Notes: generated by a model from the letters alone, not told the origin. A stretch of DNA of 64,000 nucleotides from a candidate division WWE3 bacterium RIFOXYC1_FULL_40_10 (GCA_001773215.1 MEWB01000001.1:395052-459051); one strand, 5' to 3'; shown: positions 10,350-61,119, counted from the stretch's first letter. Translations and numbers: made by a program.

Positions 10350-11066
10350 GTGGCATTAAAAGCGTATAAGAAAAAACTCGAATATTCATACTCTCTTGGG
10401 ATTTTTCCTACAATAGAGCTGTTGCAAACTCATCCAGAAAAAGTTATCTCGATCCTTTTAGCATCAGGAGCTGAGGATACAAAAGGAATCTCGGAAATTA
10501 AGAAGCTGTGTGACAAACACAAGATTACATACGATATCGCCGATAAAGCGATAGCAAGAATTGCTATAAAGGAAAAAACTCAAGTCGCCGGGGCTTTTGA
10601 GAAATACACTCAGCCTCTTATCCGAAACGAACATCATGTTGTATTAGTAAATCCCTCTTTACCGGGGAATGTAGGAACAATAATTAGAACTATGGTAGGC
10701 TTTGGGATTACAAATTTAGCTCTAATTAGGCCCTGTATCGACTTTTTTGATCCTATGACAGTAAGAGCAGCTATGGGGGCAGGCTTTAAAGCAAATTTTG
10801 AGTACTTTTTGAGCTTTGACGATTATAGAAAAAAATTTTCCGAAAATACTATTTATCCATTTGTACTAAATGGAAAAAATGAGTTGAAAGATGTGATTTT
10901 TAAGAAGCCGGCAACATTGCTTTTTGGAAACGAAGGAAGCGGGTTACACCCCGACTTCAACTCCTCTGAGACATCTATAAGAATAAGTCACTCTAATGAA
11001 ATTGAATCATTAAACTTATCTACCGCCGCCGGGTTGGCCTTATACAGCTTATATAATCAACATTGA
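10350..11066 (+). CDS. TrmH/SpoU-family RNA 2'-O-methyltransferase
   Basis: SPOUT motifs VLVNPSLPGNVGTIIRT, LLFGNEGSGL and SLNLSTAAGLALY. Confidence 0.8.
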   Translation: MALKAYKKKLEYSYSLGIFPTIELLQTHPEKVISILLASGAEDTKGISEIKKLCDKHKITYDIADKAIARIAIKEKTQVAGAFEKYTQPLIRNEHHVVLVNPSLPGNVGTIIRTMVGFGITNLALIRPCIDFFDPMTVRAAMGAGFKANFEYFLSFDDYRKKFSENTIYPFVLNGKNELKDVIFKKPATLLFGNEGSGLHPDFNSSETSIRISHSNEIESLNLSTAAGLALYSLYNQH

Positions 11067-11120
11067 AACATACCCTGTAGTTTGATAAAATAGCCTAAAT
11101 ATATATAAAAGGAGACAATA

Positions 11121-11711
11121 ATGATCAAAGACGCTAAGTCGAGAGAAAAGATGTATGGTTTGGTGTTTGTTCTTGCAATTACATCCTTAATAAGCTTTCT
11201 TTTTGCCTCTGTCGTAAGTGGATCTCCCAAAGAAACTATCGGTAACATGTACTTGCCGGCTAAAGATCCTACTATGATTGGCCGACTACCTGAGGAATTA
11301 AGAAGGCAGGCGTTATATCAAGAGATTGGTGAACAAAGCATCAAGGAAGCGATCGTCGAGTTTCCCAACTGTGATTTTTCGCTGCGCCGTTGTCCGACGG
11401 AAATCCTCTATAAGGTTACTGGTAGCGATGCATGGAGATATTCTGTTACATATGAACGGCTCGTTGGCGACTACCCGACATGGCTTCAGCGTACTATTGT
11501 GCAGTATGATGTAGAGTACCTGCCCGAGGACAACAGTACAATGGTCATGGTTGTCGCCAGGAAAAGCACAGCGGGAACGGTGTTAAAGATTGTGGCGTAC
11601 TACTTAATAATGACAGCTGTACTTTCTTTGGTCTATGGAATTTGGATTGTGCACCTGGTCAGAAAGTTATTTAATATTCCTGAACCACCTATAAGCCCAG
11701 ATATGTTATAA
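11121..11711 (+). CDS. hypothetical membrane-anchored protein (N- and C-terminal TM helices)
   Basis: Strong SD AAAAGGAGACAATAATG, signal/TM MYGLVFVLAITSLISFLFA, C-terminal TM. Confidence 0.5.
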   Translation: MIKDAKSREKMYGLVFVLAITSLISFLFASVVSGSPKETIGNMYLPAKDPTMIGRLPEELRRQALYQEIGEQSIKEAIVEFPNCDFSLRRCPTEILYKVTGSDAWRYSVTYERLVGDYPTWLQRTIVQYDVEYLPEDNSTMVMVVARKSTAGTVLKIVAYYLIMTAVLSLVYGIWIVHLVRKLFNIPEPPISPDML

Positions 11712-11718
11712 AACACTT

Positions 11719-11754
11719 GGCGCCTGTGATTTGTTGCAGGCGCTATTTTATTTC
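11719..11754 (+). terminator. rho-independent terminator candidate
   Basis: ggcgcctg-tgatttgtt-gcaggcgc hairpin followed by tattttattt. Confidence 0.55.
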
Positions 11755-11781
11755 CGGGGTCATACCTGTAATATAAAGTAT

Positions 11782-12279
11782 ATGAGTGAAGCCGAAGCTT
11801 CTGAGCTGAATTCAATTTTAAATAGGCTCCCTTGTTCTCCCAAGGGTACATACAGGCCATTATATGAATATACGGATGAGACTGTTTCAACTGACTCTCA
11901 AATTGGATTGTCGGGCGCTAAGGCAGAAACCAGAGAAATTTTATATTTTCATCCGTCGGATGTGATCTTTATTAGCTTCGATACCTTAACAAGACCTGTA
12001 AAATCCCTGTCCTCGTTGCCAAAACGCAATGTATATAATCCTTCAAATGAAGAACTTGGGTCCAAAGTGAGGTCAGTCTCAATTAGTGAGTTAATAAATG
12101 CCGGCTATATAGGAGTGATTGCAGATACGGTAGATGTTGGTATTAGAAGAATGGAAAAAGGCCCCACAATCACTACAAAGGGCTTAATGCCTGTTATCAG
12201 GCAAATGGTCGCACAAAGTATAAATTCGGAGGGTAATGTAGTAAAACACCAAAAGTTTGATGTACTTAAAGAAGAATAG
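11782..12279 (+). CDS. hypothetical protein
   Basis: The track ORF starts at 11731, inside the terminator hairpin. The first downstream in-frame ATG (MSEAEASEL, 11782) is preferred. Confidence 0.45.
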   Translation: MSEAEASELNSILNRLPCSPKGTYRPLYEYTDETVSTDSQIGLSGAKAETREILYFHPSDVIFISFDTLTRPVKSLSSLPKRNVYNPSNEELGSKVRSVSISELINAGYIGVIADTVDVGIRRMEKGPTITTKGLMPVIRQMVAQSINSEGNVVKHQKFDVLKEE

Positions 12280-12317
12280 AAAAGGAGGGTCGTTAAATCA
12301 ACCCTCCCCATACGAGA

Positions 12318-12659
12318 CTAGAATCCCGACAGAATCACGAAAAAGAACCAGCCATTAAGTATCGCATTTACTAGCCATATCGCGATGAGTAGGTTGTTTC
12401 GCTTTTCTCTTTGGAAGTTGTAGACGATAATTGATAAACACGACAGTGCATATAAACCGGCTACTACTAGAAGTAACTCCATGTTAAAATGCTGGTACAC
12501 CCCCACCACCCATGCTACCAACAGGAGTATATTTACTGCCAGAAGAGGAACAATTGCATTGATTGGGAGAGCGCGTTTAATATTTGTCTCCACTATACCC
12601 AAACTCCAACCAATAGCCAGAAAAGATACTACAAGTTCTGCCCACGGAAACTCATCCAT
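12318..12659 (-). CDS. small polytopic membrane protein
   Basis: Track ORF 12318-12755 overlaps the upstream gene. The internal ATG at complement 12659 (MDEFPWAELVV.., TM helices follow) sits 2 nt after the upstream stop (12662). Confidence 0.5.
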   Translation of the reverse strand: MDEFPWAELVVSFLAIGWSLGIVETNIKRALPINAIVPLLAVNILLLVAWVVGVYQHFNMELLLVVAGLYALSCLSIIVYNFQREKRNNLLIAIWLVNAILNGWFFFVILSGF

Positions 12660-12661
12660 TT

Positions 12662-13033
12662 TCACTCCAGTGCGGTTCCGATTATAAACCATTGGTCCCA
12701 AACCCATTGGATAAGAGGGTCCAGGTCTGATTCCAAAGCTCTGTTTGGCAACCATTTCGTAGGTATACCTGCGCCTACTAGAACAACCATCCCCTCCATC
12801 TTCACTACGTATGTATCGTCGACCTGCACAACATACACATATTTAGGAGGCAAATTCTTATCACCATCTTCCTGCTCATCTGCCTTAAGATATACAAAAG
12901 GCACATAAGCTCCAGTTTGTGACAGGTAAACACCGGTTCTAAACAACGGATTTTTTTGTAACCTGGGGGTTAGGTGTATAAACCTTTGTAGAGTTTCTTC
13001 AGCCTGCTCTTGATTCCACAATTGAGTACCCAT
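12662..13033 (-). CDS. hypothetical protein (123 aa)
   Basis: Good SD on the minus strand (AAGGAGAGGACTATATG). No recognised domain. Confidence 0.55.
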   Translation of the reverse strand: MGTQLWNQEQAEETLQRFIHLTPRLQKNPLFRTGVYLSQTGAYVPFVYLKADEQEDGDKNLPPKYVYVVQVDDTYVVKMEGMVVLVGAGIPTKWLPNRALESDLDPLIQWVWDQWFIIGTALE

Positions 13034-13110
13034 ATAGTCCTCTCCTTGAAGATATAGTTCAATACTTATTGGTATTATATCTTAAATATAGCGTGGGAAC
13101 AAGTAAAGGT

Positions 13111-13131
13111 TGGTGACCCCACGGAGAATCG
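13111..13131. repeat. att-like direct repeat (copy of the tRNA-Glu 3' end)
   Basis: Exact 21/21 match to 22173-22193; flanking bases differ on both sides. Confidence 0.75.
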
Positions 13132-13386
13132 GTCACAGGTTCTCGCCTGCTGGCGATCCCTGCGACCCCGCCTCGCCGCCGTCGCGGCTCCGACTTTCGA
13201 TTCCAAGTTAGCTCATACAAAAGGAAGCATCAACCTTGTGGCTGATGCTTCCTTTCGTGGTGACCCCAAGGATATCATTTTACAACCAGTTATCTAAAGA
13301 GTTGGTAGATGTGGGAAAACTTATAGTTGATTACGATTTGGTTGGTGTGTTGAGTAACAATACTACCAGTATGGAGTGTAACTAGT

Positions 13387-13785
13387 ATGGAAAATATTGA
13401 GATTAAGCAAAAATTTGTAGAATTGAGGGCTAAAGGTAATTCCTTTCAAAAGATTGCAGATGAATTGGGTGTTACAAAACAGACACTTATTAACTGGAGT
13501 AAAGACTTGCAAACAGATATTAGAAATATGAAAGCTCTGGAATTGGATAGTCTTCTAACAAAGTACAAAATGACCCAAGAGTGCCAAATTGAATTATATG
13601 GTGAACTATTAGAAAAAATTACTGCAGAAGTTAAAAGTCGTAGCCTTCAAGACTTAAGTACAGATAAGCTTTTTAGTGCCTATTTCAAGTTATTTGAAAA
13701 TATTATGAATACTAAAAGAACAATAACACTTGAAAAAGAATCTGTTTGGGAAATAGAACCCCAAAAAACTCTCTGGACAACTTGA
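13387..13785 (+). CDS. helix-turn-helix DNA-binding protein (island-borne)
   Basis: N-terminal ELRAKGNSFQKIADELGVTKQTLINW is an HTH of the resolvase/terminase-small-subunit type. Confidence 0.5.
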   Translation: MENIEIKQKFVELRAKGNSFQKIADELGVTKQTLINWSKDLQTDIRNMKALELDSLLTKYKMTQECQIELYGELLEKITAEVKSRSLQDLSTDKLFSAYFKLFENIMNTKRTITLEKESVWEIEPQKTLWTT

Positions 13786-13835
13786 CCTTTTCTTTACCAA
13801 AAATTTACCTATTCTTATGAGATAATCTTATTAGA

Positions 13836-15251
13836 ATGATTACCAAAACAGACTTTTTAGTTTATCTGGAAGCTCCAAGGCACTTTTGGGCTTTGAAAAA
13901 TAACAAGTATGATTTAACAATATCCGATTTTGACAAACACTTGATTACACAGGGCTATATCGTGGAAACAAAGGCTAAAGAATACGCTAAGCGTTATTTA
14001 TTACCTAGCTATGCAACAAATGATTCTGACTTGGTTTTTCAGAGGACATGCCTAGACGGGGACTTTGAGGCTAGAACAGACATTTTAGTTAGAAATGCAA
14101 CTACTAACAAATGGGATATTTACGAGGTAAAAAGCGTAACTAAACCTAAGCCAGAGCATTACTACGACACTACATTTCAAACTATAATCTTTGAAAAGCA
14201 CATGGATATTGGCAATGTTTTCATTCTGCATGTAAACAACGACTATGTGCGAGAAGGTGATTTTGACTTGGGATTGTTCTTAGTTGCGGAAGATGTGACC
14301 CAAAAAGTGAAAGAGTTAAAAGAAGAAACGCTTAATAAGATGAAGGATTGCCAATTTCTAGTAGGTACAGACAACTATAAATTAGCTACAGAATGTTGGA
14401 AACCTAAAGAATGTCACTGTAAAGGGCTATGTTTCCCAAGTCTACCTAATGACTCAATCTATAACCTAGCACGGGTTACTGAAAAGAAAATTTTAGACCT
14501 ACGGGATAACGATATTCTAAATATAACGGACATTCCCGATGACTTTGACTTAACCACAAACCAACGAATACAGGTAGAAGTAGCCAAAAGAAATACGCCA
14601 CTAATAAATCATAAAGCTATAAAGCAAGAATTGGAAACCCTAGAGTATCCGTTATATTTCCTTGACTACGAGACCTACGACCCCGCAATCCCGATGTATG
14701 ACTGGTATAAACCGTATCAACAGATGGTTTTCCAGTACTCACTACATGTTTTAGAAAGCCCTAATAACAAAGACCTTAAACATTACGAATATGTTGTAAA
14801 AACGAAAAGCGAGCCTTGTAGGGAGCTTCTGACGCATATGAAACAGTATATTGGAAATACAGGTAGCGTGATTGTTTGGTACAAGGCTTTTGAGTGTTCA
14901 CGAAACAGAGAAATGGGACAAATCTGTATGGATTTTGCTGAATTTTTAGAAAATGTAAATGGTAGAGTTTATGACCTTATGGATATATTTAAAAACAATC
15001 TCTATGTTGACCCCAAATTCAAAGGCAGTAACTCAATTAAAGATGTATTACCCGTTTTAGTTCCAGAGCTAAACTATAAAAACCTAAATATACAAAATGG
15101 CACAATGGCAATGACTAACTGGCATAAGATGGTTTATAAAATTACGAACCAGAAGGAAAAAGACGAACTGCTTAAAAACTTGCTAACTTATTGTGAACAG
15201 GACACATTAGCTATGGTTAGAATATGGGATTTTTTAAGGCAACTGGCTTGA
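13836..15251 (+). CDS. two-domain nuclease-like protein: N-terminal PD-(D/E)xK, C-terminal DEDD/RNase-H-like exonuclease-like (DUF2779-like)
   Basis: PD-(D/E)xK-like TDILVRNATTNKWDIYEVKSV (D..E-x-K). C-terminal YFLDYETYDPAIP resembles a DnaQ-type Exo I D-x-E motif. The domain naming is inference from motifs only. Confidence 0.5.
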   Translation: MITKTDFLVYLEAPRHFWALKNNKYDLTISDFDKHLITQGYIVETKAKEYAKRYLLPSYATNDSDLVFQRTCLDGDFEARTDILVRNATTNKWDIYEVKSVTKPKPEHYYDTTFQTIIFEKHMDIGNVFILHVNNDYVREGDFDLGLFLVAEDVTQKVKELKEETLNKMKDCQFLVGTDNYKLATECWKPKECHCKGLCFPSLPNDSIYNLARVTEKKILDLRDNDILNITDIPDDFDLTTNQRIQVEVAKRNTPLINHKAIKQELETLEYPLYFLDYETYDPAIPMYDWYKPYQQMVFQYSLHVLESPNNKDLKHYEYVVKTKSEPCRELLTHMKQYIGNTGSVIVWYKAFECSRNREMGQICMDFAEFLENVNGRVYDLMDIFKNNLYVDPKFKGSNSIKDVLPVLVPELNYKNLNIQNGTMAMTNWHKMVYKITNQKEKDELLKNLLTYCEQDTLAMVRIWDFLRQLA

Positions 15252-15362
15252 AAACTAATGATTTTTACCCGCATAGATTAACTCTGCACTATAAATAAAT
15301 TCCCTAACTGTATATACTTAATACAATGACTACCCCTAATCAGAAATTTAAGGTAAAAAAGT

Positions 15363-16184
15363 ATGATTACAAGTAATCTAACTAAAAAACAACTTGAAAA
15401 CTCCTTGTTTGAAGGCGATTGTCTAAAAGTCATGTCTAAATTTCCAGATAAAAGTATAGATATGATTTTGTGCGATTTGCCATATGGCACAACGCAAAAC
15501 AAGTGGGATAGTGTAATTCCATTAGCTGCTTTGTGGAAGGAGTACGAGAGGATTATAAAAGATAACGGGGTAATAGCATTGACCTCTCAAGGTGTATTTA
15601 CAGCGTCGTTAATCATGAGCAACACAGCACTATTTAAGTATAAATTAACATGGGTTAAATCTAAGGCTACAAATTTTTTGAACGCTAAGATACAGCCTTT
15701 GAGAAAACACGAAGATATTTGTATCTTTTATAGAAATCACAAGTACAAACCAACATACCACCCGCAGATGACATTTGGAGAACCGTACGATAAAGGACAC
15801 AGAAAAAACCAACAAACTAGTAGTTACGGTGAATTTAACTCAATAGAGGTAAAAAGCGATGGAGAAAGATACCCAACAGATGTCGTTTATTTTAAAACCG
15901 CTGAAAGCGAAGGTGAGGTTTTCCACCCAACACAAAAACCGATTGAACTTGGAAGATATTTAGTTAAAACATATACTAACAAGGGTGAACTGGTATTAGA
16001 CAATACTTTTGGAAGCGGTAGTTTTTTAATCGCTACTGCCTTAGAAGATAGAAAGTTTGTTGGAGTTGAAATAAATCAGGAGGTTTTATTGCACAAGGAA
16101 AAAAAAGTTGATTTAATGCACATAGCAGAAAGCCGCATTAGGAAATTTCTACCTAAAATAGACATACCTATATACAAAATATGA
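15363..16184 (+). CDS. beta-class N6-adenine/N4-cytosine DNA methyltransferase
   Basis: Motif IV DLPYG precedes motif I (FGSGS), which is the beta-class order; FHPTQKP is also present. Confidence 0.85.
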   Translation: MITSNLTKKQLENSLFEGDCLKVMSKFPDKSIDMILCDLPYGTTQNKWDSVIPLAALWKEYERIIKDNGVIALTSQGVFTASLIMSNTALFKYKLTWVKSKATNFLNAKIQPLRKHEDICIFYRNHKYKPTYHPQMTFGEPYDKGHRKNQQTSSYGEFNSIEVKSDGERYPTDVVYFKTAESEGEVFHPTQKPIELGRYLVKTYTNKGELVLDNTFGSGSFLIATALEDRKFVGVEINQEVLLHKEKKVDLMHIAESRIRKFLPKIDIPIYKI

Positions 16185-18931
16185 CCACAATAAATTACAA
16201 TGAACGAAGCTGGGCAATTGATATTATATCCGAAATTAACATTTGGCTATCCAGTAGAAATATAATAATAAAAAGAGCTGGTGGTGAGAACACACTAATG
16301 GAAGGCACTAAATCTTTGTTTCCTGATGTATTGCTATTTGGAGATCTGGACAAAGGTAAAATTCTACAAGGGTGGGAGTTGAAAATGCCAGATACTCCCC
16401 TAGAAGATGCGGATTTTATAGCAAATGCAAAGGCTAAAGCTAAATTACTTTCTCTCAATAGTTTTTTGTTGTGGAATGTATCAGAAGCTGTCTTATATAA
16501 AATTGAGGATAGCGGCAGTCTTACGCAAGTTAAATCTTGGAACAATTTAAGTCATTTAAAACTTAGAGGTGAGGTACTTCAGCATAAAGATGCAATAAAA
16601 CTTATGTTGGTTGAAATACTGAATGATATAAATAGCTTTATTCTTGGTGGAACTATTAAAACGGTATCTGTTGTTACTGCCTTGAGTAGTGAAACAGTTT
16701 CGTGGCTAATACATAATAACTTAAGCTCGTATGTTGAAGCTTTAAAAAATAATGCTGTAGCTAATCATGGTTTTTCAGACGAAATTACTCTATGGTGGCG
16801 ATACGCCAAAAACGACTACCCCGAAGAACAAGATAAATTTGTTGTTCTGGGAAGAAATAACCTACTTTTCTTAATTAACAAGTTCATATTTGCACATATT
16901 TTGAAATCCTACCAAGTAGAAGCAAATTCAATTGATAATATAAACTCTAGTACTGATGTTGAGACGGCACTTGCCACATTTGACCATATTTCTGAAAAAT
17001 GTGATTTTTGGAACATATTCCAACGACAAACAGGTGAGGAGCTAGTCACTCCTGAAGTTTGGCAAGATATAGTAAGTTTTAACGCCTTGTTAAAAGAGTT
17101 TAATTTCGCAAAAATTGAAAAGAACCTTCTTCATGATCTACTTGGTGCAACGATTTACAAGAATAAAAGAAAATTTGCTGGGCAATTTACAACGCCACAG
17201 GAATTGGCAAGGTTTATTGTACGGCTTACCATTAAAGACAAAAATCTACATGCGATTGACCCCTGTTGTGGTACTGGAACTATAGTGAAAGAAATCTATA
17301 AGTATAAAAAAACACAAATAACTGTAAAGGAAAGTCTGGCTACATTGTGGGCATCAGATAAGTTCTCCCTTCCTCTACAGATGGCAATGTTTAACCTAGC
17401 TGAACCAGAGGCGTTAGGTTTCGTATTAAAAGTTTTCAAGGAAGATGCAACTAAACTTGAAGTAGATAAAGAAATCACGCTTCATGAACCTTTTAAAGGT
17501 ACAGCAATAATTGAGAAGTTACCAAAGTTTGGTTACATTATTTCCAATCTGCCGTTTGTTCAACAGGAAGATATTGAAGTCCTAAACCCAAATGTTGTAG
17601 AAATCAACAGGTTCATTCAAGACAAGCTAGGGGAGGGGTTTCTACTTGACGGAAGGAGTGACTTATATGCTTATTTTCCTTTTCATTTCTGGAAATTATT
17701 AGATACAGACGGAAAAATGTCTATTATCGTTTCAAACTCATGGCTGGGTACAGCTTGGGGTAAGAAATTTTATACAGCATTATCCGCTTTTTTTGAAATA
17801 GAAAATATAATAACATCAGGTAATGGTCGTTGGTTTGATAATGCCAAAGTCGTTACAAATATAATCACTTTGAGAAAGAAAAATTTTCCGTCACTACCAA
17901 ATGCAAACGAGATAATTAAATTTACAACAACTAAAAAAGCACTAACAAGCTATAATCCTGAAGAAATTGAAGAAATATCAGCAATTGTTTCCACAGCGGA
18001 ATCATTCAATGAAAGCGACTTGTCGGTGTATGCGTATACACACGAAAAACTAAATAAAGTTCTGTCTCTAGGACTAAATTTAAACAGTTTTTTTGCAAAT
18101 AATGACTGGCTTTTAGAACTAAGTAGCAAACTAATTAAGGTTTCAGAATTATTTGATATAGGCAGAGGTGAAAGGCGAGGCTGGGATAAGCTATTCTACC
18201 CCGATACAACTAATGGAATTGAGCAGGTATATCTACAACCTGTTTTAAAGACACCTAGGTCGGTTCATACACTAGGTGCAAAGCCAGATGCGTTAGCATT
18301 TTGTTGTGATAAAACGAAGGAGGAGTTGGAGCTTCTTGGGCATACAGGTGCCCTGTCATGGATAAATAAGTTTGAACATCAGGAAAATGAGAGGGGTATT
18401 CCATTAACTACAGCATTAGCGAGAAGCGGTACAAATTGGTATACCATGTCACCGACTACTATGGCGGAAATGGTGACTAGTATTAACTTTGGGGATAGGC
18501 TTTTCTTTGCTAAATTTCAAAAGCCAACCTTTGTGAACCAAAGACTTGTAAGATTTAGCAAAAAATCTGGAGATATTGATGATGACTTATGTCATTCATT
18601 ATTAAATAGCATTGTTGGGCAGTTTTACATTGAAGCTATGGGAACTGGTAGAGGAGAGGGGGCTTTGGACTTGAGCAAAGACAAAATAAAAGCTGACCTA
18701 AGAATCATTAACCCAAAGTTATTTACTGGGGATAAAAGAGATAAAATAATGACTCTGTTTGGAAAATTGATGGAAAGAGAAGTTTTACCTTTAAAGCAAG
18801 AGCTTGAAATGGACGATAGAGTAGACTTTGACAATGCAGTACTTGAGGCTATCGGCTTTCCTTTATACAGGGAACGCATAAAAACTGCTCTACTCACACT
18901 TTATAATATAAGGGCTTCCGTTAACGGCTAA
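16181..18931 (+). CDS. MmeI-like Type IIG/IIL restriction-modification enzyme (nuclease + gamma-class N6A methyltransferase + target-recognition domain fusion)
   Basis: 916 aa. N-terminal D..E-L-K (PDVLLFGDLDKGKILQGWELK). Central motif I FTTPQELARFIV..IDPCCGTG and motif IV ISNLPF. Overlaps the upstream methyltransferase by ATGA. Confidence 0.7.
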   Translation: MTTINYNERSWAIDIISEINIWLSSRNIIIKRAGGENTLMEGTKSLFPDVLLFGDLDKGKILQGWELKMPDTPLEDADFIANAKAKAKLLSLNSFLLWNVSEAVLYKIEDSGSLTQVKSWNNLSHLKLRGEVLQHKDAIKLMLVEILNDINSFILGGTIKTVSVVTALSSETVSWLIHNNLSSYVEALKNNAVANHGFSDEITLWWRYAKNDYPEEQDKFVVLGRNNLLFLINKFIFAHILKSYQVEANSIDNINSSTDVETALATFDHISEKCDFWNIFQRQTGEELVTPEVWQDIVSFNALLKEFNFAKIEKNLLHDLLGATIYKNKRKFAGQFTTPQELARFIVRLTIKDKNLHAIDPCCGTGTIVKEIYKYKKTQITVKESLATLWASDKFSLPLQMAMFNLAEPEALGFVLKVFKEDATKLEVDKEITLHEPFKGTAIIEKLPKFGYIISNLPFVQQEDIEVLNPNVVEINRFIQDKLGEGFLLDGRSDLYAYFPFHFWKLLDTDGKMSIIVSNSWLGTAWGKKFYTALSAFFEIENIITSGNGRWFDNAKVVTNIITLRKKNFPSLPNANEIIKFTTTKKALTSYNPEEIEEISAIVSTAESFNESDLSVYAYTHEKLNKVLSLGLNLNSFFANNDWLLELSSKLIKVSELFDIGRGERRGWDKLFYPDTTNGIEQVYLQPVLKTPRSVHTLGAKPDALAFCCDKTKEELELLGHTGALSWINKFEHQENERGIPLTTALARSGTNWYTMSPTTMAEMVTSINFGDRLFFAKFQKPTFVNQRLVRFSKKSGDIDDDLCHSLLNSIVGQFYIEAMGTGRGEGALDLSKDKIKADLRIINPKLFTGDKRDKIMTLFGKLMEREVLPLKQELEMDDRVDFDNAVLEAIGFPLYRERIKTALLTLYNIRASVNG

Positions 18932-18978
18932 AACTACCAACTTACTAAAATTTATAACTAAGAAAATTGAAAGGTTGC

Positions 18979-19004
18979 AAAAATCAGCTTCTTCACTGAT
19001 TTTT
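18979..19004 (+). terminator. hairpin terminator candidate after the RM gene
   Basis: aaaaatcag-cttcttca-ctgattttt. Confidence 0.45.
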
Positions 19005-19231
19005 AAATCTTAAAAGTGTATTTGAAAATGTTTAACAAAAAGCCTGCCTTGAGCAAGTATCGTCAAAAACAATTGGAAACGAGATGTTTCAAAAAGAAAC
19101 GGGTTTTAATGAGCGTCATACATTAAATAAAAACTTTGGTTACCCTATTATATTTAACGCCCCTCTCTTAAATTATACTTGACTGTATAATTCTCCACAT
19201 GCTATAAAGTATACATAACGGTATAATTTAT

Positions 19232-19651
19232 ATGAATGACTTAATAATTAGCAATTATGAAGAACGCAACAAACAGCTATTAGAGGACTGTATATCTATT
19301 TGGGTTGAACACGACTTTCAATCGCGCTGGTTTCGTGTAAAAGGATACCATGAATTGGGCAAAAGACTTTTAGAAGAACCAAAGGAATATGGGGATAGGT
19401 TTGTGCCATTGGTGGCAGAATCTTTGGGTAAAAGTGAACGAACAATATACAGGACTATTGAATTTGCACGAGCATTTCCTGATTTAGATTTACTTCCCGA
19501 AGGTAAAAATATTAGCTGGTACAAGATAATTCAAAAATATCTCCCATTAGAAACAAGATGTATAGGAGACGCTATGCTAGTGTATATATGTCCCAACTGT
19601 AATTCCGAACACAAAAAATCAGATATAAAGTTCATAAGAAAGAATATATAG
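19232..19651 (+). CDS. hypothetical protein with C-terminal CxxC zinc-ribbon (island-borne)
   Basis: CPNCNSEHK; GKSERTIYRTIEFARAF is possibly HTH-like. A TATAAT lies 10 nt upstream. Confidence 0.45.
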   Translation: MNDLIISNYEERNKQLLEDCISIWVEHDFQSRWFRVKGYHELGKRLLEEPKEYGDRFVPLVAESLGKSERTIYRTIEFARAFPDLDLLPEGKNISWYKIIQKYLPLETRCIGDAMLVYICPNCNSEHKKSDIKFIRKNI

Positions 19652-19652
19652 A

Positions 19653-20456
19653 ATGTTTCGGTTACCAGAAGCAGAGGAAATAAATCTATTAGATGCTAAG
19701 GCTAGAATTAACTTTGATTCCATAATCAACACAAGAAAGTACACCGTTAAAGACTCTACAATGACTTACCGTCAAGCTAATTCTATGGCGAGTGATAATA
19801 TGCTTCCCGAAGACAAAGATAGGGATAATGGGTGGAGAAAGTTCAGTCTCAAGGAGTTAATTTACATTGAATTGGTCTTATCACTAAAGAAGTTGGGACT
19901 AAAACACAGTCAACTTAGAAATGTTTGGGACTCTTTTTTCAATCCGTATGATGACGCAAAAAAGGAAAAACGATTATGGAGAGAAATTAGTGATGATGTG
20001 ATTGCGTTAGTAATGGGTCACATAGACATGATTTTAACAATAACTGCAGGTGGGGAGGTTTCCTATATACACCCTGTTTTTTTTACTAGGGAATATCCAA
20101 CTGAAGAGCCATTTGTTTTTGTTAGTATGAGCGATACCGTTAATAAAGTAGCTAAAAGAATTGGTAAAGAAGGGTTTACACCAAAAGCAACATTAGATAG
20201 CATTTATCACATCTTAACAACCAAAGAAGAAAAGGCATTAGCCCTTATAAGAAACGGCGAGTTTAGAACAATAAAGTTAACAAAAAAGGATGGGGAAATA
20301 GAGTTAATCCATGCAGAGCAGATGAATAAATCCGATAATATTACAATTAAAGCAATTGAGGAAGTCATCTCAACAGGTAAATACCAAAAAATTACTATTA
20401 CTCAAAAAGATGGAAAATTAGTCAACCTTACACAAGAAGTTATGATGAAAGTCTAA
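19653..20456 (+). CDS. hypothetical protein (267 aa, island-borne)
   Basis: Follows the previous ORF with 1-nt spacing. No recognised motif. Confidence 0.45.
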   Translation: MFRLPEAEEINLLDAKARINFDSIINTRKYTVKDSTMTYRQANSMASDNMLPEDKDRDNGWRKFSLKELIYIELVLSLKKLGLKHSQLRNVWDSFFNPYDDAKKEKRLWREISDDVIALVMGHIDMILTITAGGEVSYIHPVFFTREYPTEEPFVFVSMSDTVNKVAKRIGKEGFTPKATLDSIYHILTTKEEKALALIRNGEFRTIKLTKKDGEIELIHAEQMNKSDNITIKAIEEVISTGKYQKITITQKDGKLVNLTQEVMMKV

Positions 20457-20549
20457 CCACTGAGCTGATACACAGCAGGTGTTAGCATGTAATTAAAATT
20501 TATAAGCAAGTTATGAGAAACACTCAAGCTGGCTGGGACAACCAGTACT

Positions 20550-20714
20550 ATGAGTGCAGAAAAAGAAAAGTTAGCTAAAATTGCTCAATCTATAGAAAGG
20601 AAGACTAGTATTAAAGATAAAGAAAAGATATTAGGAATAGCACAGGCTGTAGATGACTTCGCTGGTCTAATTCTACAAAGCTATTTAGCAGGAAAGGCAT
20701 TAAAGAAAAAATGA
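20550..20714 (+). CDS. small ORF (54 aa) translationally coupled to the recombinase gene; candidate recombination accessory/directionality factor
   Basis: Own translation MSAEKEKLAKIAQSIERKTSIKDKEKILGIAQAVDDFAGLILQSYLAGKALKKK. Its stop TGA overlaps the recombinase ATG (ATGA). Confidence 0.25.
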   Translation: MSAEKEKLAKIAQSIERKTSIKDKEKILGIAQAVDDFAGLILQSYLAGKALKKK

Positions 20715-22213
20715 AAGCAATAATTTATTGTAGGGTATCTACACAGGAACAAGTTAATGAGGGCAACAGTCTTTTAACACAAGAAAGGCTTTGTAGGCAG
20801 TATGGAAAAAATAATGGCTACGAGATTGACAAGGTTTTCGTTGAGGAAGGTGAAAGTGCTAAAACCATATACAGAACATCCCTCAAGAACATGATGAAAT
20901 ATTGTACTTTAACGGAAGGTAAAATTGATGCTGTGTTGATTTATAGAATTGATAGGCTTTCAAGAGAAACTGCAGACTATATAGCCTTAAAGGTTTTTTT
21001 TAATAAATTAGGGATTAAAGTGATATCTACCAGCGAACCAATTGAAGATACACCTACAGGTAGGTTTTTAGAAACTGTTCTCGCAAGTAGTGCTCAAATG
21101 GATAATGAGATAAGAGGAGAACGAAGTAAAAACGGTATGATAGACCGTCTAAAACAAGGAAGATGGATGTTTTATGCACCTTTAGGTTATAGGACAGAGG
21201 GAGCAAAAGGTGCCTCAAATATAGAACCTGTAGAACCCATAGCAGGTTATATAAACAGGGTTTTTATGGCACTATCCTCTGGGTATATAACGGTAGAAGA
21301 GGTGCGAAGGGACTCCGCAAAATGGGGACTTGTAACAAACAGAGGTAAAGCACTTAGCATTTCAATGTTTCATAAAATGATTAGAAACCCGATTTATAAG
21401 GGGTACTTAGATGTCCCTAGCATGGGGATTTATCAAAAAGGCAGTTTTAAGGCTATTGTAGATGAAAAAGTATTTGACCAAGTTCAGTATATTTTAGAAA
21501 GCAAAAAGAAGAAAATGCCTATATATAGAAAATTAAACCCTGACTTTCCTTTAAGGGGTGCATTGAAATGTAGCAAATGTGGAAAATTACTAACAGCGAG
21601 TTGGGCAAAGCAAAGAACCATAGGTCACTACAGGTGTTCAGTATGTACCAATGTGAACCTAAACAAAAAGGTTTTGGAAAATACATTTAGTGAATACCTT
21701 AAGTCAATAGTTTGGAACCAAATAACAGTTGAAGTTGTAAAAGAAGCATTGTTATTAAATTGGCAATCGCACAAAAAAGAATACGAAAAAGAACTAGCTA
21801 AAATTGCGAAGCAACAAATTGAAATAAGAGAGTTAATGGATAAAGTTGTTGATAAAAACATGAGGGGTGTTTACAGTGACTCGCTAGCAAAAACTAAACT
21901 AAATGATTATGAAAGGAACCTCGCCGAATTGCGTTTAGAGACCCAGAAATATGCTTCTCCAGATGTTATGGAGGCAGATTTACTTAACTACAGCGTTGAC
22001 TTCATGCGTAATATAACTGGTATGTGGGATAAATTGGATATAGAACCAAAGCATAGGTTGCATAAAATGTTATTTCCTGATGGTATCGTTTATTTGAATG
22101 GGATATTTACAACCCCTGTTAAATCCTGTCTTATAGAGCTAAACGATCTAGTATGTGTTGAAAATTCTACTATGGTGACCCCACGGAGAATCGAACTCCG
22201 GTTGCCGGGATGA
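20711..22213 (+). CDS. large serine recombinase (resolvase-domain integrase)
   Basis: N-terminal catalytic context IIYCRVSTQEQ and resolvase-domain motifs (LIYRIDRLSR, SAQMDNEIRGERSKNG). Downstream recombinase domain and zinc ribbon CSKCGKLL..YRCSVC. The last 13 codons are encoded within the tRNA-Glu sequence. Confidence 0.9.
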   Translation: MKAIIYCRVSTQEQVNEGNSLLTQERLCRQYGKNNGYEIDKVFVEEGESAKTIYRTSLKNMMKYCTLTEGKIDAVLIYRIDRLSRETADYIALKVFFNKLGIKVISTSEPIEDTPTGRFLETVLASSAQMDNEIRGERSKNGMIDRLKQGRWMFYAPLGYRTEGAKGASNIEPVEPIAGYINRVFMALSSGYITVEEVRRDSAKWGLVTNRGKALSISMFHKMIRNPIYKGYLDVPSMGIYQKGSFKAIVDEKVFDQVQYILESKKKKMPIYRKLNPDFPLRGALKCSKCGKLLTASWAKQRTIGHYRCSVCTNVNLNKKVLENTFSEYLKSIVWNQITVEVVKEALLLNWQSHKKEYEKELAKIAKQQIEIRELMDKVVDKNMRGVYSDSLAKTKLNDYERNLAELRLETQKYASPDVMEADLLNYSVDFMRNITGMWDKLDIEPKHRLHKMLFPDGIVYLNGIFTTPVKSCLIELNDLVCVENSTMVTPRRIELRLPG

Positions 22214-22247
22214 AAACCCGGCGTCCTAACCGTTAGACGATGGGGCC
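22173..22247 (-). tRNA. tRNA-Glu (anticodon TTC)
   Basis: Minus-strand GGCCCCATCGTCTAACGGTTAGGACGCCGGGTTTTCATCCCGGCAACCGGAGTTCGATTCTCCGTGGGGTCACCA. Acceptor 7 bp with one G-U pair, anticodon loop TTTTCAT, TTCGATT T-loop, CCA encoded. Confidence 0.9.
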
Positions 22248-22302
22248 ACGACCTCGCCATTTTATCAGTAAATACACCTATCAGCAATATTTGGTAAAAT
22301 GA

Positions 22303-23727
22303 TTGCATTCTATGAATATCCTGGAAAAAATTATTATTTATTTCACCTCGGTGATCTTAACTCTATCCCCTACCCCTAAATATACAGAGGGTATAGTAGG
22401 CCAACCTCAGAATTTCTTGCCAAGCCAAGCGCAAACACCTAACGATCGAACAATTTCCAGGATGATTTTTAGAGGCCTGTTTAAATACGATAACTACGGA
22501 GCCCTTCAGCCGGATTTAGCAGATACTTGGTCAATTTCCCCGGATGGATTGGTTTATACCATAAAATTAAAAGAGAATAATTTTTGGACAAACGGCAAGA
22601 GAATTACCTCAGATGACTTAATCTATACATCATTTAAGGTTAACGACCTCTCGGGAGTGGCAACCGACAAAGTAGACGAGCTAACAGTTCGGTATACACT
22701 TCCAAATAGATACGCCCCATTTTTAAACTTGATGACTGTTGGAATAATGCCCTCCCAGTCTGAAGAAAAGGTAGACCCTATATTTCCGGTCTCCAGTGGC
22801 CCCTTTAGAGTAATTTCCGTTGAGAAAGTAGGGGGTTTAGTTAAGAAAGTGACATTGCATAATTCTGAAACTAACCTAAGAAAACTGGTGTTTAGATATT
22901 ATAAAACCGAAGATGATCTGAATTTGGCTATTAAGCTGGCAGAGATCGATGGATACACATCAGAGGCTGAAAACCCAAATGAGAATTTTGAGGATCACAA
23001 GTTCCCACTTCAAGGAGTATATTATGCATTGTTTTTTAACCAAAGAAATGAAAAATTTCAGGATCCGGCACTTAGAATAAATATCGCAAAAGCACTTAAC
23101 ACAAATCACGTTATTGGTAATAAAGGAATTCCCGTAGAAGGGCCTATTAGCCGCAGTGCTTTTACAAGCAGTAAGCTAAAGTTTAATATTTATGACGAAA
23201 ACTTTTCAATAGACATGAGTACGAAAGACTTTAAGTTAACTATCCCCGACTTACCCATACATAGGGATAGCGCTCAGCTAATTAAGTCTCTACTAAAGGA
23301 TAAACTGGGGATCAAAGTTGAGATTATTGCAGTACAGCCGGAAAATTTCATCAAGGAAATCGTGGAACCTAGAAATTTTGAGGTTCTCCTTTATGGCCAG
23401 GAAGTATCTAGAGATCCGGATAGGTATGTTTTATGGCATTCTGAACAAAAAGACCCGCCGGGTTTAAACATAACCGGATTTAAGCACGTAAGAGCCGACC
23501 GCGCTTTGGAAGAAGGCCGTAAGGAACTAGAAACCTCAAAGCGTACGTTACATTACGAAGAATTCGAACGAGTGTTTTCCGAACAGGTACCCGCGATATT
23601 TTTATACCATCCTTTTGTACACCACTATGTAACATCTCATATAAAGGGCATCGGAGAGAAATATACCTACACGTATGTGGATAGGTTCTTAGATTTTTAT
23701 AACTGGACCAGGCTTGATACGAATTAG
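22303..23727 (+). CDS. ABC-transporter solute-binding protein, family 5 (peptide/nickel-binding-like)
   Basis: Signal/TM start, then the NFLPSQAQTPNDRTISRMIFRGLFKYD..LQPDLADTWSISPDGLVYTIKLK pattern typical of SBP_bac_5. Confidence 0.65.
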   Translation: MHSMNILEKIIIYFTSVILTLSPTPKYTEGIVGQPQNFLPSQAQTPNDRTISRMIFRGLFKYDNYGALQPDLADTWSISPDGLVYTIKLKENNFWTNGKRITSDDLIYTSFKVNDLSGVATDKVDELTVRYTLPNRYAPFLNLMTVGIMPSQSEEKVDPIFPVSSGPFRVISVEKVGGLVKKVTLHNSETNLRKLVFRYYKTEDDLNLAIKLAEIDGYTSEAENPNENFEDHKFPLQGVYYALFFNQRNEKFQDPALRINIAKALNTNHVIGNKGIPVEGPISRSAFTSSKLKFNIYDENFSIDMSTKDFKLTIPDLPIHRDSAQLIKSLLKDKLGIKVEIIAVQPENFIKEIVEPRNFEVLLYGQEVSRDPDRYVLWHSEQKDPPGLNITGFKHVRADRALEEGRKELETSKRTLHYEEFERVFSEQVPAIFLYHPFVHHYVTSHIKGIGEKYTYTYVDRFLDFYNWTRLDTN

Positions 23728-23816
23728 TGTATAATGCTCGTTGGTGTATGGTGACCGTAGCTTCCGCCTTCGCTGGTGCTACGGCGGACAGGACTACACT
23801 ATTAAGGATGTCATGT

Positions 23817-23893
23817 GGTGACCGTAGCTCAGTCGGTAGAGCACCGCTCTGTGGAAGCGGGGGTCGCGGGTTCGAGCCCCGTCGGTCACCCCA
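23817..23893 (+). tRNA. tRNA-His (anticodon GTG)
   Basis: G-1 encoded and paired with C73. Acceptor GTGACCG/CGGTCAC, anticodon loop CTGTGGA, CCA encoded. Track ORF 23727-23912 overlaps it and is rejected. Confidence 0.9.
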
Positions 23894-23996
23894 GAAAATA
23901 AAGTTGATTTAACAACACTTTTTATAGTGCCCCTAACGATAAATTGAACCGAGACCTACATTCCCTTTCAACTCGGAGTATCGTATAATCAATAGT

Positions 23997-24326
23997 GTGA
24001 ACCGTAGAGTTGCATACTCATTAGCCTTTTTGTTTCTTACCGTTTTACTTTTGCTTTTTTTGTGGAAGCAAGTCGTTCTACTTTCATTTCTACTTGTACT
24101 TATTGCATATGCGAAATATAGAATAGCCCCTATTAAAAGAGAACTGCTGTGGTATGTTTTGGTAAGTCTTGCTGGCGGTATTACCGAAATCATATTAGTA
24201 AATATTGGTCGTGCGTGGAGCTACACCGGTCCAGGTTTTTTAGGTTTACCTATACAGATGGTACTTTTTTGGGGAGTTGTGGGCACCACTGTAGTCATAA
24301 TATATGATGAGTTAGTTGGTAAATAG
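23997..24326 (+). CDS. small membrane protein (3 TM)
   Basis: Hydrophobic helices. The antisense ORF 23933-24193 is less protein-like. Confidence 0.4.
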   Translation: MNRRVAYSLAFLFLTVLLLLFLWKQVVLLSFLLVLIAYAKYRIAPIKRELLWYVLVSLAGGITEIILVNIGRAWSYTGPGFLGLPIQMVLFWGVVGTTVVIIYDELVGK

Positions 24327-24523
24327 TATCCCTTTGTTTAGTATTTCTCGGAAAATCAGAATTGTTTTAATAATGCGGTTCAAGTTAGCACCTACTACCG
24401 ACCCCAATATATTTTCGTTGCTAAATCAACACTTTTTTGTAACCCCCTAATACTAAATTGAACCGGATTGCATATTTATGACAAGCTGCCTATAATCACA
24501 GCAAAATAAAAGGAGAGTGGAAA

Positions 24524-24808
24524 ATGACGATTAGAATCACATCTACGACTGACGATATGTGGGTAGGAAGGCAATTGGGCGGGAATAACGTTGATATAGC
24601 CCTACTTCATTACCCAGATAAAAAGGTAGGTTGCCACCTGTGTGTAAGGAAATCTATCAAGGACAGAATTTCAGAAACACTTGCGATAAAAGAGGGGTGG
24701 AAATCCACAAATTGTTATTTCTTTGTATGGGTAAACCAAACCCCGGAGCAAATCATAGATATGATCCGAACTAAAACACGTGAAACAGACACATTAGTGG
24801 TTTCATAA
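24524..24808 (+). CDS. hypothetical protein (94 aa)
   Basis: SD AAAGGAGAGTGGAAAATG. Followed by a clean terminator. Confidence 0.5.
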   Translation: MTIRITSTTDDMWVGRQLGGNNVDIALLHYPDKKVGCHLCVRKSIKDRISETLAIKEGWKSTNCYFFVWVNQTPEQIIDMIRTKTRETDTLVVS

Positions 24809-24860
24809 CGAAATGAGTTGTAATCGGGAGATATATTTTATATATAAAACATCGCTCACA

Positions 24861-24897
24861 AAGAACCTTCTAAACAAACAGAAGGTTCTTTTTTTAT
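24861..24897 (+). terminator. rho-independent terminator
   Basis: aagaaccttct-aaacaaac-agaaggttctt followed by a T7 run. Confidence 0.6.
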
Positions 24898-25072
24898 TTG
24901 TCTCAAATACTGATACTCATTATTCCCATTAGTCTCTGTAAAACAAGTATTATTTGGTTTAATCTAGCCTCCACCACCGACCGCAAGCAACAAAGAAGTC
25001 AATTACAGAAAACAAAGCCGTCATTGCCAAATCCATTAAGGAATCTGGGTCAGACGGCTTTTTGTCATCTAT

Positions 25073-31050: not shown

Positions 31051-31107
31051 TGAGGGGACGTAGCTCAGTGGTAGACCTGCCTGCCGGCAGGCAGGGCAGC
31101 GGCTAAG
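31051..31107 (+). repeat. truncated 5' copy of tRNA-Lys interrupted by a 20-bp palindrome
   Basis: TGAGGGGACGTAGCTCAGTGGTAGA (25 nt) is identical to 31352-31376. After the palindrome, GCAGCGGC matches the anticodon-stem 5' strand of the intact gene; then the sequences diverge. Confidence 0.7.
31076..31095. repeat. perfect 20-bp palindrome CCTGCCTGCCGGCAGGCAGG
   Basis: Read directly; self-complementary. It is absent from the intact tRNA-Lys copy. Confidence 0.85.
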
Positions 31108-31114: not shown

Positions 31115-31354
31115 ATGTATTTTGTATACGTATTAAAAAATGCCAAAGGTGTACTATACAAGGGACTGACGAGAGACCCGCTGACACGTTTGGAGCAACA
31201 TAACAAGAGCAGAAATAGGAGTACAAAAGGGAAGGGTGTTTGGGAACTTGTACTCATTGAAAATTATAATACACGCGCTGAAGCCAGGAAGCGCGAGAAG
31301 TATCTTAAGAGCGGATCTGGAAGGGAAATGCTTCGCAGGATATTGCATCTATGA
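31115..31354 (+). CDS. GIY-YIG nuclease-domain mini-protein (UPF0213/YhbQ-like)
   Basis: MYFVYVLKNAKGVLYKGLTRDPLTRLEQHN..WELVLIENYNTRAEARKREKYLK matches the GIY-YIG catalytic core. The stop TGA abuts the tRNA-Lys 5' end. Confidence 0.8.
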   Translation: MYFVYVLKNAKGVLYKGLTRDPLTRLEQHNKSRNRSTKGKGVWELVLIENYNTRAEARKREKYLKSGSGREMLRRILHL

Positions 31355-31429
31355 GGGGACGTAGCTCAGTGGTAGAGCAGCGGCCTTTTAAGCCGTTTGT
31401 CGTGGGTTCGAACCCCACCGTCCTCACCA
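31355..31429 (+). tRNA. tRNA-Lys (anticodon TTT)
   Basis: GGGGACGTAGCTCAGTGGTAGAGCAGCGGCCTTTTAAGCCGTTTGTCGTGGGTTCGAACCCCACCGTCCTCACCA. Anticodon loop CTTTTAA, CCA encoded. Confidence 0.9.
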
Positions 31430-59232: not shown

Positions 59233-59259
59233 GCTTTTCCAACTATTTATCCTGTGAGT

Positions 59260-61118: not shown

Positions 61119-61119
61119 A

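Follow-up and report, generated by a model that had tools for sequence, protein, structure and literature searches.

Large serine recombinases (LSRs) such as those of phiC31, Bxb1, A118/LI, TP901-1 and SCCmec (Ccr) combine Resolvase, Recombinase and zinc-ribbon domains with a coiled-coil insertion and act at a short core. According to PMC4383910, tRNA genes are not among the known targets of serine integrases. The 14 tRNA cases among 297 found by Mageeney et al. in 2020 had not been reported before, and experimental proof was called for (PMC7192596). An attachment (att) site inside the integrase gene, with the gene split on entry into a tRNA gene, has been described for archaeal tyrosine 'suicidal' integrases only (PMC8371274). 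The overall goal of our analysis was to define a restriction-modification (RM) island with an LSR gene that lies at the tRNA-Glu gene of candidate division WWE3 bacterium RIFOXYC1_FULL_40_10, a member of the Candidate Phyla Radiation (CPR)/Patescibacteria lineage from Rifle groundwater. The whole stretch of DNA analyzed was 64,000 nucleotides (nt) long and is referred to as the window; all positions are counted from its first letter.

The recombinase of this island resembles the known LSRs in its domains and short core and in having its gene at the edge of the island. Its target is the 3' end of a conserved gene, as is that of Ccr. The enzyme differs from them in that the target is a tRNA gene, in that attP appears to lie within the open reading frame (ORF) of the recombinase, and in that integration appears to alter the C-terminus of the protein. 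The phiRSM integrase (tRNA-Ser; Askora et al. 2011, as cited in PMC7192596) is also of the serine family and also has a tRNA 3' end as its attB. By that secondary account, however, it is a resolvase-like 'S-core' protein that lacks the Recombinase and zinc-ribbon domains and belongs to a filamentous phage, whereas the enzyme described here is an LSR of 500-529 amino acids (aa) from a non-phage island.

The closest parallel for the arrangement of the gene is found in archaea. In the 'suicidal' integrases of SSV1, pTN3 and pT26-2, as here, the att site lies in the integrase gene, the two halves of the gene are found at opposite ends of the integrated element, and the gene is intact only in the free form (PMC8371274). 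The SSV-type integrases are archaeal tyrosine enzymes (Phage_integr_3) whose catalytic part is separated from the N-terminal part, whereas the enzyme here is a serine recombinase of bacterial hosts that loses only about 38 C-terminal codons. Its catalytic and DNA-binding domains stay together, and tandem arrays borrow the tail of a neighbour in frame.

We think it very probable that the LSR represents a clade of serine integrases that have attP inside their own gene, and that integration swaps a C-terminal helix for codons antisense to the tRNA. For the locus as a whole, the explanation that we favour, with good confidence, is an 8.9-kb island with its own LSR, a short core, a split recombinase gene and an older relic alongside. 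According to this explanation, the segment 13258-22172 would have been inserted by its own LSR into the last few nt of tRNA-Glu. The core would be TGGTGA, and the identity that continues out to 11 nt would be due to chance or mimicry. The acceptor strand and T arm of the tRNA would form a half-site of attB, and the far end of the island would form a half-site of attP with an xAAC motif 5 base pairs (bp) further out. The core would lie inside the LSR coding sequence, 38 codons before the true stop. Integration would part the C-terminal tail (13258-13385) from the body (20711-22172), leaving a gene that reads into the antisense strand of the tRNA and stops at the anticodon, and excision or a tandem neighbour would restore the full-length frame. 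A further 21-bp repeat at 13111, with a 126-nt spacer, would be the leftover of an earlier, different integration at tRNA-Glu. The features on which this explanation depends are as follows.

22173-22247, minus strand: intact tRNA-Glu(UUC), the integration target (ARAGORN; Rfam tRNA, 61 bits)
20711-22213, plus strand: LSR, integrated form, 500 aa (Pfam Resolvase, Recombinase and Zn_ribbon_recom; the body is codons 1-487)
22173-22183: att core on the tRNA side (attR), TGGTGACCCCA; minimal core TGGTGA at 22173-22178
13258-13268: inner att core (attL side), TGGTGACCCCA, with 11/11 identity to the tRNA 3' end; minimal core TGGTGA at 13258-13263
13269-13290, plus strand: P' arm of the predicted attP, with the block ATCATTTTACAACCA at 13274-13288 and CAAC at 13283-13286, +25 to +28 from the first core base
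13258-13385, plus strand: putative detached 3' tail exon of the LSR gene, ending in VTPRISFYNQLSKELVDVGKLIVDYDLVGVLSNNTTSMECN with the stop codon TAG at 13383-13385; it would join the LSR body only in the excised (attP) form

We found that the LSR ORF reaches 40 nt into tRNA-Glu. This overlap had been overlooked in the original prediction made for this DNA, which described an island of about 9.1 kb bounded by 21-bp repeats. The final 13 codons of the LSR ORF read the tRNA in antisense, starting at an ATG that spans the edge of the core, and they are followed by a stop codon TGA that is the antisense of anticodon positions 35-37. The protein has the resolvase catalytic domain and the Recombinase, zinc-ribbon and coiled-coil parts that define LSRs: Pfam Resolvase (E = 3e-32), Recombinase (E = 6.6e-7) and Zn_ribbon_recom (E = 4.1e-6), the latter two above cut-off, and a match to the PHROG 95 integrase (E = 2e-82). 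Residues R8, S10, Q24, D81, R82, L83 and R85 are invariant among 20 sequences, and R8, S10, D81, R82, L83 and R85 match Bxb1 residues listed in PMC12884075. In an AlphaFold2 (AF2) model, the predicted local distance difference test (pLDDT) score of the body is above 80, and long helices (337-384 and 390-413) follow the zinc ribbon. No Phage_integrase (Pfam) match was found among the eight annotated ORFs of the island, the sole recombinase of which is serine-type. We did not adopt developmental excision of the XisF type as an explanation, because the tRNA is already intact when the island is present and XisF, the best curated family match, is far below cut-off. In one GenBank assembly of the same strain (GCA_001773225.1; L012 2233-4089), the DNA is identical to window positions 20457-22311, yet neither the recombinase nor the 54-aa gene that precedes it is recorded.

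Three copies of the tRNA end are present in the window. The plus-strand 21-mer TGGTGACCCCACGGAGAATCG, which is the complement of the T-loop, T-stem, acceptor strand and CCA of tRNA-Glu, occurs exactly (21/21) at 13111-13131 and 22173-22193, and the sequences flanking these two copies are different. No further copy was found in the window at ≤3 mismatches, and none was found in 100 shuffles (expected, 0). The G+C content drops by about 6 points between the two copies, from approximately 0.41-0.43 outside to 0.34-0.37. The third copy is shorter and had also been overlooked: TGGTGACCCCA at 13258-13268, an 11-mer that is found only three times in the window. The island contributes at most the last few nt (..UCACCA) of tRNA-Glu. 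An Rfam scan of 11000-25000 (E ≤ 1) returned two tRNAs only.

We used homologues of the flanking SBP_bac_5 protein (54-59% identical), together with contig look-ups, to find WWE3 genomes without the island; these are different species, not strains. A search of the same protein against genome contigs gave no match. Three WWE3 genomes (L155, L157 and L159) keep the order tRNA-Glu(-)/SBP_bac_5(+)/tRNA-His(+) with no recombinase island at the tRNA, so that tRNA-Glu adjoins SBP_bac_5 in the island-free relatives as well. There is no insertion at all in L155 and L157, and L159 has the relic alone. Three other relatives have sister islands at the same tRNA, with a shared backbone and different RM cargo. 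The closest is L096, with an LSR 89% identical to that of the window and a cargo of a methylase and a 178-aa protein. In L095 the LSR is 62% identical and the cargo is a Type III RM system, and in L162 the LSR is 61% identical and the cargo consists of a C5 methylase, R.HinP1I and SocA. A module of two small genes and the recombinase (p267-p54-LSR), together with a distal helix-turn-helix (HTH) gene, is constant across the sister islands, and the cargo varies. These genome comparisons are strong evidence that the locus is a mobile island that inserts site-specifically and exchanges its defence cargo. The comparison with related genomes that had been proposed as a check thus bore out the site-specific integration at tRNA-Glu of an island with an RM system and an LSR.

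The sister islands also point to where the island begins. Nucleotide homology to L095 and L096 begins at 13251-13258, not at 13132, as assessed by blastn and alignment, and the same is true of L162. The window, L095 and L096 share an invariant block extending from TGGTGACCCCAAG to ATCATTTTACAACCA, which L162 also contains. What lies to the left of the inner core differs. In the window and in L096 this DNA consists of an outer tRNA fragment, a spacer and an 18-bp hairpin, and the fragment agrees with the tRNA variant of the same genome; in L096 the outer fragment follows that variant (CCCT), and the inner copy retains the island sequence. In L162 the DNA to the left is unrelated. In L095 another, distantly related LSR gene ends there and overlaps the inner core with its 3' end, an indication of tandem islands. 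Because the homology with the sister islands starts at the inner copy, the relic is found alone in L159, and the core in a more distant relative is 6 bp, the interval 13111-22193 is best divided into a relic and an island proper that most likely comprises 13258-22172 (8,915 bp). The 21-bp repeats are probably not att sites of the resident LSR.

The second LSR in L095 (1-1281; 3' part, 22% identical) has a frame in a different phase that also crosses the TGGTGACCCCAAG core of the next island, and two recombinase lineages therefore share one tRNA-Glu site. In L094 (5363-12221) and L164 (3084-3749), the recombinases P0002/P0005 are followed by TGGTGA and a second tail exon, and then by genes for PLDc_2, an XRE-type HTH protein, a UvrD helicase, an OLD-TOPRIM ATPase and DUF2130. 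The helicase and ATPase form a Gabija-like pair, and these downstream genes look like a second defence island stacked in tandem.

In its general layout the locus resembles tRNA islands with the Islander signature. It has an intact tRNA gene with displaced fragments in direct orientation (two here, at 13111 and 13258) and an integrase gene beside the tRNA gene, and it shares with such islands variable defence cargo, tandem accretion and a locus that is unoccupied in related genomes. Islander-signature islands have tyrosine integrases, however, whereas here the recombinase is of the serine type and its own repeat is only 6-11 bp and covers the acceptor end alone.

We compared the att sites of related elements. 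The motif [GC]AAC is found at +25 to +28 in the distal arm of all eight reconstructed elements, the window island included. On the tRNA side, the 3' side of the acceptor strand and the T arm would constitute the B' half-site, and GAAC (from TCGAACC of the T arm) lies at +20 to +23. In the structure of the LI integrase bound to attP (Rutherford et al. 2013), the outer recognition motif reportedly lies 5 bp further out in attP than in attB. By this rule, the element has the two properties expected of an LSR site, a short core and an attP motif displaced by 5 bp. The outer 21-bp site has no [GC]AAC at +25. Because L094 and L162 diverge from the tRNA after TGGTGA, L096 needs an exchange to the left of +9, and L044 shares 6 nt only, the crossover would be placed within TGGTGA, the last bases of the tRNA. 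A dyad in attP (GTTGAAAAT/ATTTTACAAC) was tried as the centre of the crossover and rejected, given that the P arms are not conserved in the clade and that a centre at +5.5 disagrees with the +20/+25 register.

If the core lies inside the LSR gene, then joining the two ends of the island should restore a longer frame. The LSR body (20711-22172) joined to 13258 onward gives a 529-aa ORF that ends in ..VTPRISFYNQLSKELVDVGKLIVDYDLVG.., with the core at codons 488-490, and the equivalent joined ORFs are 527 aa in L095 and 528 aa in L096. The 129-nt tail segments of these three WWE3 islands are equal in length and are open only in the phase of the LSR, and in each of them the stop codon of the tail lies 1 nt before the HTH start codon. 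The differences among the tails fall mainly at third codon positions (18-19, compared to 9-14 at first or second positions), and synonymous changes are more numerous in the LSR phase than in either of the others. Homologues of other phyla that are without tRNA tails end in a helix motif of the approximate form [FWY]-N-[QST]-hydrophobic-x-x-[E/W]-L. A 6-nt core copy followed by an in-phase tail was present within 10 kb upstream in 8 of 40 tRNA-overlapping loci, compared to none of the control flanks, and in-frame tail exons were found in five further lineages. In L162/L164, the codons that follow TGGTGA in the LSR frame come from another tail exon, the first part of a second island, which means that tails are exchanged in frame between stacked islands.

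Homologues from Chitinophagales and Mucilaginibacter (L018-L028, L042-L058) and from other Bacteroidota are 520-560 aa long and are not beside tRNAs. The terminal helix, ..FWEQVKGDLIELKAIL.., is retained in these proteins, where it follows a long linker.

The integrated enzyme may remain active, because its catalytic and DNA-binding domains stay together. More tentatively, the tail could be a built-in switch of the direction or activity of recombination, which would make this enzyme a bacterial serine counterpart of the archaeal 'suicidal' integrases; we regard this role as possible, with the balance somewhat against it.

A relative of the element provides information about mobility. L050 is a SPAdes contig of 5,509 bp with a 55-bp terminal overlap, corresponding to a circle or tandem repeat of 5,454 bp. 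A genome of the Saccharibacteria (L044) has a corresponding segment integrated at tRNA-Glu: one end of it is matched by one half of the contig at 98.9%, and the other end by the other half at 99.8%. The segment is flanked by two copies of the hexamer TGGTAG at a distance of exactly 5,454 bp, and the shared core is 6 bp. The LSR frame is 521 aa in L050, ending in ..SWNSIIVELEYVFKL, compared to 505 aa with a tRNA-antisense end in L044. The recombinase of this pair is a 34%-identical relative of the window LSR. The match between L050 and L044 would be indirect support for attP x attB recombination by this type of LSR. A tandem duplicate would assemble like a circle, and either one requires a recombinant junction.

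Several observations weigh against the explanation that we favour. We only infer the crossover dinucleotide of the window element, and the P arms are not conserved across the clade. Seven full-length contigs of the strain are 100% identical over all 9,137 bp, with no excised or empty form among them. The outer attB and attP junctions (built on the 21-bp repeat) gave 0 matches each in Joint Genome Institute (JGI) metagenome contigs, and the inner attP (TTCTACTATGGTGACCCCAAGGATATCATTTTAC) and attB (CTTCCTTTCGTGGTGACCCCACGGAGAATCGAAC) junctions gave 0 matches in IMG/VR and in 161 fetched loci; these searches covered assembled contigs only. A circular form or empty site, proposed as a check of the original prediction, was thus not recovered for the window island. 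The reconstructed 529-aa protein was absent, by exact look-up, among approximately 15 billion proteins. In the AF2 model of the full-length LSR, the tail has pLDDT below 50 and is unplaced, and the structure is silent on the role of the tail. In addition, the xAAC DNA motif falls on the W/Y-N codons of the tail, and conservation of the tail may therefore act partly at the level of the DNA.

Alternatively, the island could be a fixed remnant that is no longer mobile. Loss of the tail would lock the element in place, as has been proposed for the archaeal 'suicidal' integrases, and the island would be a vertically inherited RM locus. Every contig of the strain that we fetched, from several assemblies, carries the island, the full-length copies are identical, neither junctions nor full-length protein were found, and the integrated LSR is without its conserved tail, all of which is as expected for a fixed element. 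However, the backbone ORFs and the detached tail exon are all intact and in phase, and the truncated LSR retains its catalytic, recombinase, zinc-ribbon and coiled-coil parts. The circular-assembling contig and the tandem arrays of relatives indicate that the family is active, different cargo at the same site in sister species indicates turnover, and the negative searches were limited to assembled contigs. We therefore consider a fixed remnant rather unlikely, although it is the alternative that fares best.

It is also conceivable that the tail exon is not coding. In this case its conservation would come from an attP arm and the promoter of the HTH gene, the open frame would be incidental, and the LSR would be complete without the tail. 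The 15-nt block ATCATTTTACAACCA shows no synonymous variation among the three WWE3 islands, which together with the overlap between W/Y-N codons and half-site motif and the low AF2 confidence for the tail would fit such a non-coding segment. Beyond the attP arm, however, third positions are enriched for differences, synonymous changes are in excess in the phase of the LSR, and the other phases hold stop codons. The position of the stop relative to the HTH start is the same in all three islands. The same helix motif is found in other phyla without DNA similarity, including Bacteroidota, where a long linker leads to it from the core position, and the in-frame exons of the five further lineages had no counterpart in the controls. 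It therefore seems improbable that the tail is non-coding.

The remaining question is whether the DNA to the left of the inner core belongs to the island. This segment has two parts.

13111-13131: outer repeat of the final 21 nt of tRNA-Glu, displaced from the gene; most likely the distal boundary of a 148-bp relic and not of the LSR island
13132-13257, minus strand: relic spacer, 126 nt, with a GC-rich stretch at about 13132-13215 and an 18-bp hairpin at 13218-13257

The hairpin lies, on the minus strand, directly 3' of the inner tRNA fragment and is terminator-like. The RNA fold of the spacer has an energy of -66 kcal/mol (z = -7.7); a consensus terminator scan did not flag the hairpin, and the spacer has no match to an Rfam family. 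The stretch 13132-13215, directly after the outer tRNA fragment, is approximately 65% GC within a genome of 35-42% GC. The spacer aligns weakly with those of L096 and L159 and is not common to the sister islands. The layouts are similar: 21 nt and 126 nt in the window, 19 nt and about 150 nt in L096, and 19 nt and about 150 nt, with no island, in L159, where the outer-type repeat and spacer are directly beside an intact tRNA-Glu. Thus, by comparison of these loci, 13111-13257 is most likely a 148-bp trace of a previous integration event at the same tRNA, distinct from that of the island. A repeat that extends into the T loop would fit an element with a tyrosine integrase. The segment resembles the integrase-less relics of cis-mobilizable elements (CIMEs) in being a short segment between 19-21-bp direct repeats that reach the T loop, without a recombinase and able to stand alone, and it looks like a cis-mobilizable or decayed element. 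A decayed tRNA was considered and rejected, there being no T-stem partner upstream of the fragment.

It is very improbable that a single 9.1-kb island ends at the 21-bp repeats, with 13132-13257 as ordinary island DNA: the repeat is perfect and unique in the window, and L096 has the same order of outer fragment, spacer and inner copy, so that the spacer could travel with the island, but in L159 the repeat and spacer are beside an intact tRNA without an island, homology with the sisters starts at the inner copy, other DNA (an LSR 3' end or an unrelated flank) precedes the inner core in L095 and L162, the outer site is without the [GC]AAC at +25 that is seen in eight P' arms of the family, the documented core of the clade is 6 bp, and the hairpin beside the inner copy resembles a displaced terminator of the tRNA. 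The claim that the 21-bp repeats are the att junctions was therefore not borne out.

To determine how widespread this type of recombinase is, we searched protein sequences with the LSR and obtained 1,082 homologues at E ≤ 1e-10. At least 79 of the 120 best homologues end in tRNA-antisense peptides, for example ..VTPRGIEPRLPG or ..VDPTGLEPATSSVQMRRS. In 37 of the 80 closest loci, from GTDB species-representative genomes, the LSR ORF overlaps an antisense tRNA. In 24 of those 37 the ORF ends exactly 40 nt inside tRNA-Glu, and in the others the tRNA is tRNA-Ala, Lys, Leu, Asn or Arg. The hosts include CPR groups, Acidobacteriota, Verrucomicrobiota, Planctomycetota, Omnitrophota, Myxococcota and more. 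Relatives in IMG/VR are distant (≤ 31% identity) and were set aside. We found no description of a tRNA-targeting clade of LSRs in the literature searched, from which subscription journals were largely absent. The LSR belongs to a broad, essentially undescribed clade that targets tRNA 3' ends and has attP in its own gene. We regard the island itself as ordinary and the arrangement of the recombinase as the new part.

The island backbone consists of the distal HTH gene and, after the cargo, p139, p267 (MerR-like), p54 and the LSR. The cargo comprises a Type IIG enzyme, a beta-class methylase and a DUF2779 protein. All annotated ORFs between the copies of the 21-mer are on the plus strand, in agreement with the single orientation first reported.

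13387-13785, plus strand: HTH_23 DNA-binding protein, 132 aa, distal backbone gene (Pfam HTH_23, E = 1.8e-5)
13836-15251, plus strand: DUF2779 protein, 471 aa, cargo (Pfam DUF2779, E = 4e-38)
15363-16184, plus strand: beta-class N6/N4 methyltransferase, 273 aa (Pfam N6_N4_Mtase, E = 2e-23; PADLOC MTase_II, E = 1e-67)
16181-18931, plus strand: Type IIG RM enzyme, 916 aa (PADLOC REase_MTase_IIG PDLC03606, E = 0, residues 1-915; Pfam N6_Mtase and Eco57I)
19232-19651, plus strand: p139, backbone protein of 139 aa with no significant family match
19653-20456, plus strand: p267, backbone protein of 267 aa with a MerR-type N-terminal HTH fold and no Pfam match
20550-20714, plus strand: p54, backbone ORF of 54 aa that overlaps the start of the recombinase by 4 nt

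Copies of the HTH_23 protein that are 50-56% identical are found at the distal end of the L095 and L096 islands. Among the other backbone proteins, p139 has a 62% identical copy in L096. Genes of 139 aa also lie just upstream of the p267 homologue in L162 and L163, where the likeness is by length and position alone. The p267 protein is a candidate regulator or directionality factor. Copies of p54 that are 46-80% identical are present in L094, L095 and L096, and neither p139 nor p54 has a match in Pfam, PHROGs, NCBIfam or PADLOC. The HTH protein, the two proteins without family (p139 and p267, neither with a Pfam match) and the small ORF coupled to the tRNA-proximal LSR, whose domains are given above, are all as first described.

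The Type IIG enzyme has an N-terminal PD..ELK nuclease motif, a gamma-class N6A methylase and a C-terminal specificity region. Its translation contains PD..ELK, DPCCGTG (motif I) and NLPF (motif IV), so that nuclease and methylase are in one polypeptide, as in Type IIG. The methylase is a companion of this enzyme, and the two genes overlap by 4 nt. Because motif IV (DLPY) of the methylase is upstream of motif I (FGSGS), the methylase belongs to the beta class, as had been predicted. The Type IIG enzyme had been called MmeI-like. Its Type IIG nature and architecture were borne out, but its membership of the MmeI family (Type IIL) was not: the Pfam models of MmeI gave no match at E ≤ 0.01, and a PDB sequence search found M.BseCI as the sole match and no MmeI chain. 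Judged from motifs and family matches, the enzyme and methylase are best described as an Eco57I-style pair outside the MmeI family. They resemble the Eco57I/AcuI-type Type IIG systems in having a PD-ExK nuclease, a gamma-class N6A methylase and a specificity region in one polypeptide, with a stand-alone methylase adjacent. The DUF2779 protein has weak matches to NCBIfam TM0106 (RecB-like, N-terminal, E = 7e-7) and to the UU173 family, neither of which reaches cut-off. Searches of PADLOC, PHROG and PDB sequences gave no match to it, and the sister islands lack it. Because it adjoins the RM genes, an uncharacterized role in defence or DNA processing is suggested. In sum, the finding made in the original prediction is real and its island reading is right, and the boundaries and the label 'MmeI-like' need correcting.

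Two other tRNA genes in the window are associated with repeats. A 17-bp segment of the 3' end of tRNA-Gly(CCC), CCGTCGCCCGCTCCATA at 58553-58569, is repeated at 61331-61347 (window 58493-61347). The copies enclose approximately 2.8 kb with three ORFs and no integrase: ORFs of 169 aa, 262 aa and 193 aa (minus strand). The C-terminus of the 262-aa ORF is T5orf172/GIY-YIG-like, as judged by eye, and this interval may be a second, integrase-less island. In addition, 25 bp (the first 22 nt of tRNA-Lys(UUU) and 3 nt upstream) are duplicated about 300 bp upstream (31051-31075 and 31352-31376). The upstream copy is followed by a GC-rich palindrome, CCTGCCTGCCGGCAGGCAGG, making this a small relic with foreign-looking GC-rich DNA like that at 13132-13215.

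The analysis shows CPR bacteria swapping RM cargo on a constant backbone. To our knowledge, CRISPR is largely absent from CPR bacteria. Targeting of tRNA genes is a habit of a whole clade of LSRs, seen in approximately half of the 80 closest loci, compared to the few cases previously surveyed. Annotation pipelines may miss such recombinases or shorten them where they overlap the tRNA, and elements of this kind may therefore be under-counted. A recombinase whose integration disrupts its own gene was previously held to be archaeal and of the tyrosine family only (PMC8371274). If the split-gene arrangement is as we propose, tail exons would be swappable between stacked islands. Serine integrases are tools for genome engineering, and a family with highly conserved natural tRNA targets and a tail that is possibly self-regulating would be of interest.

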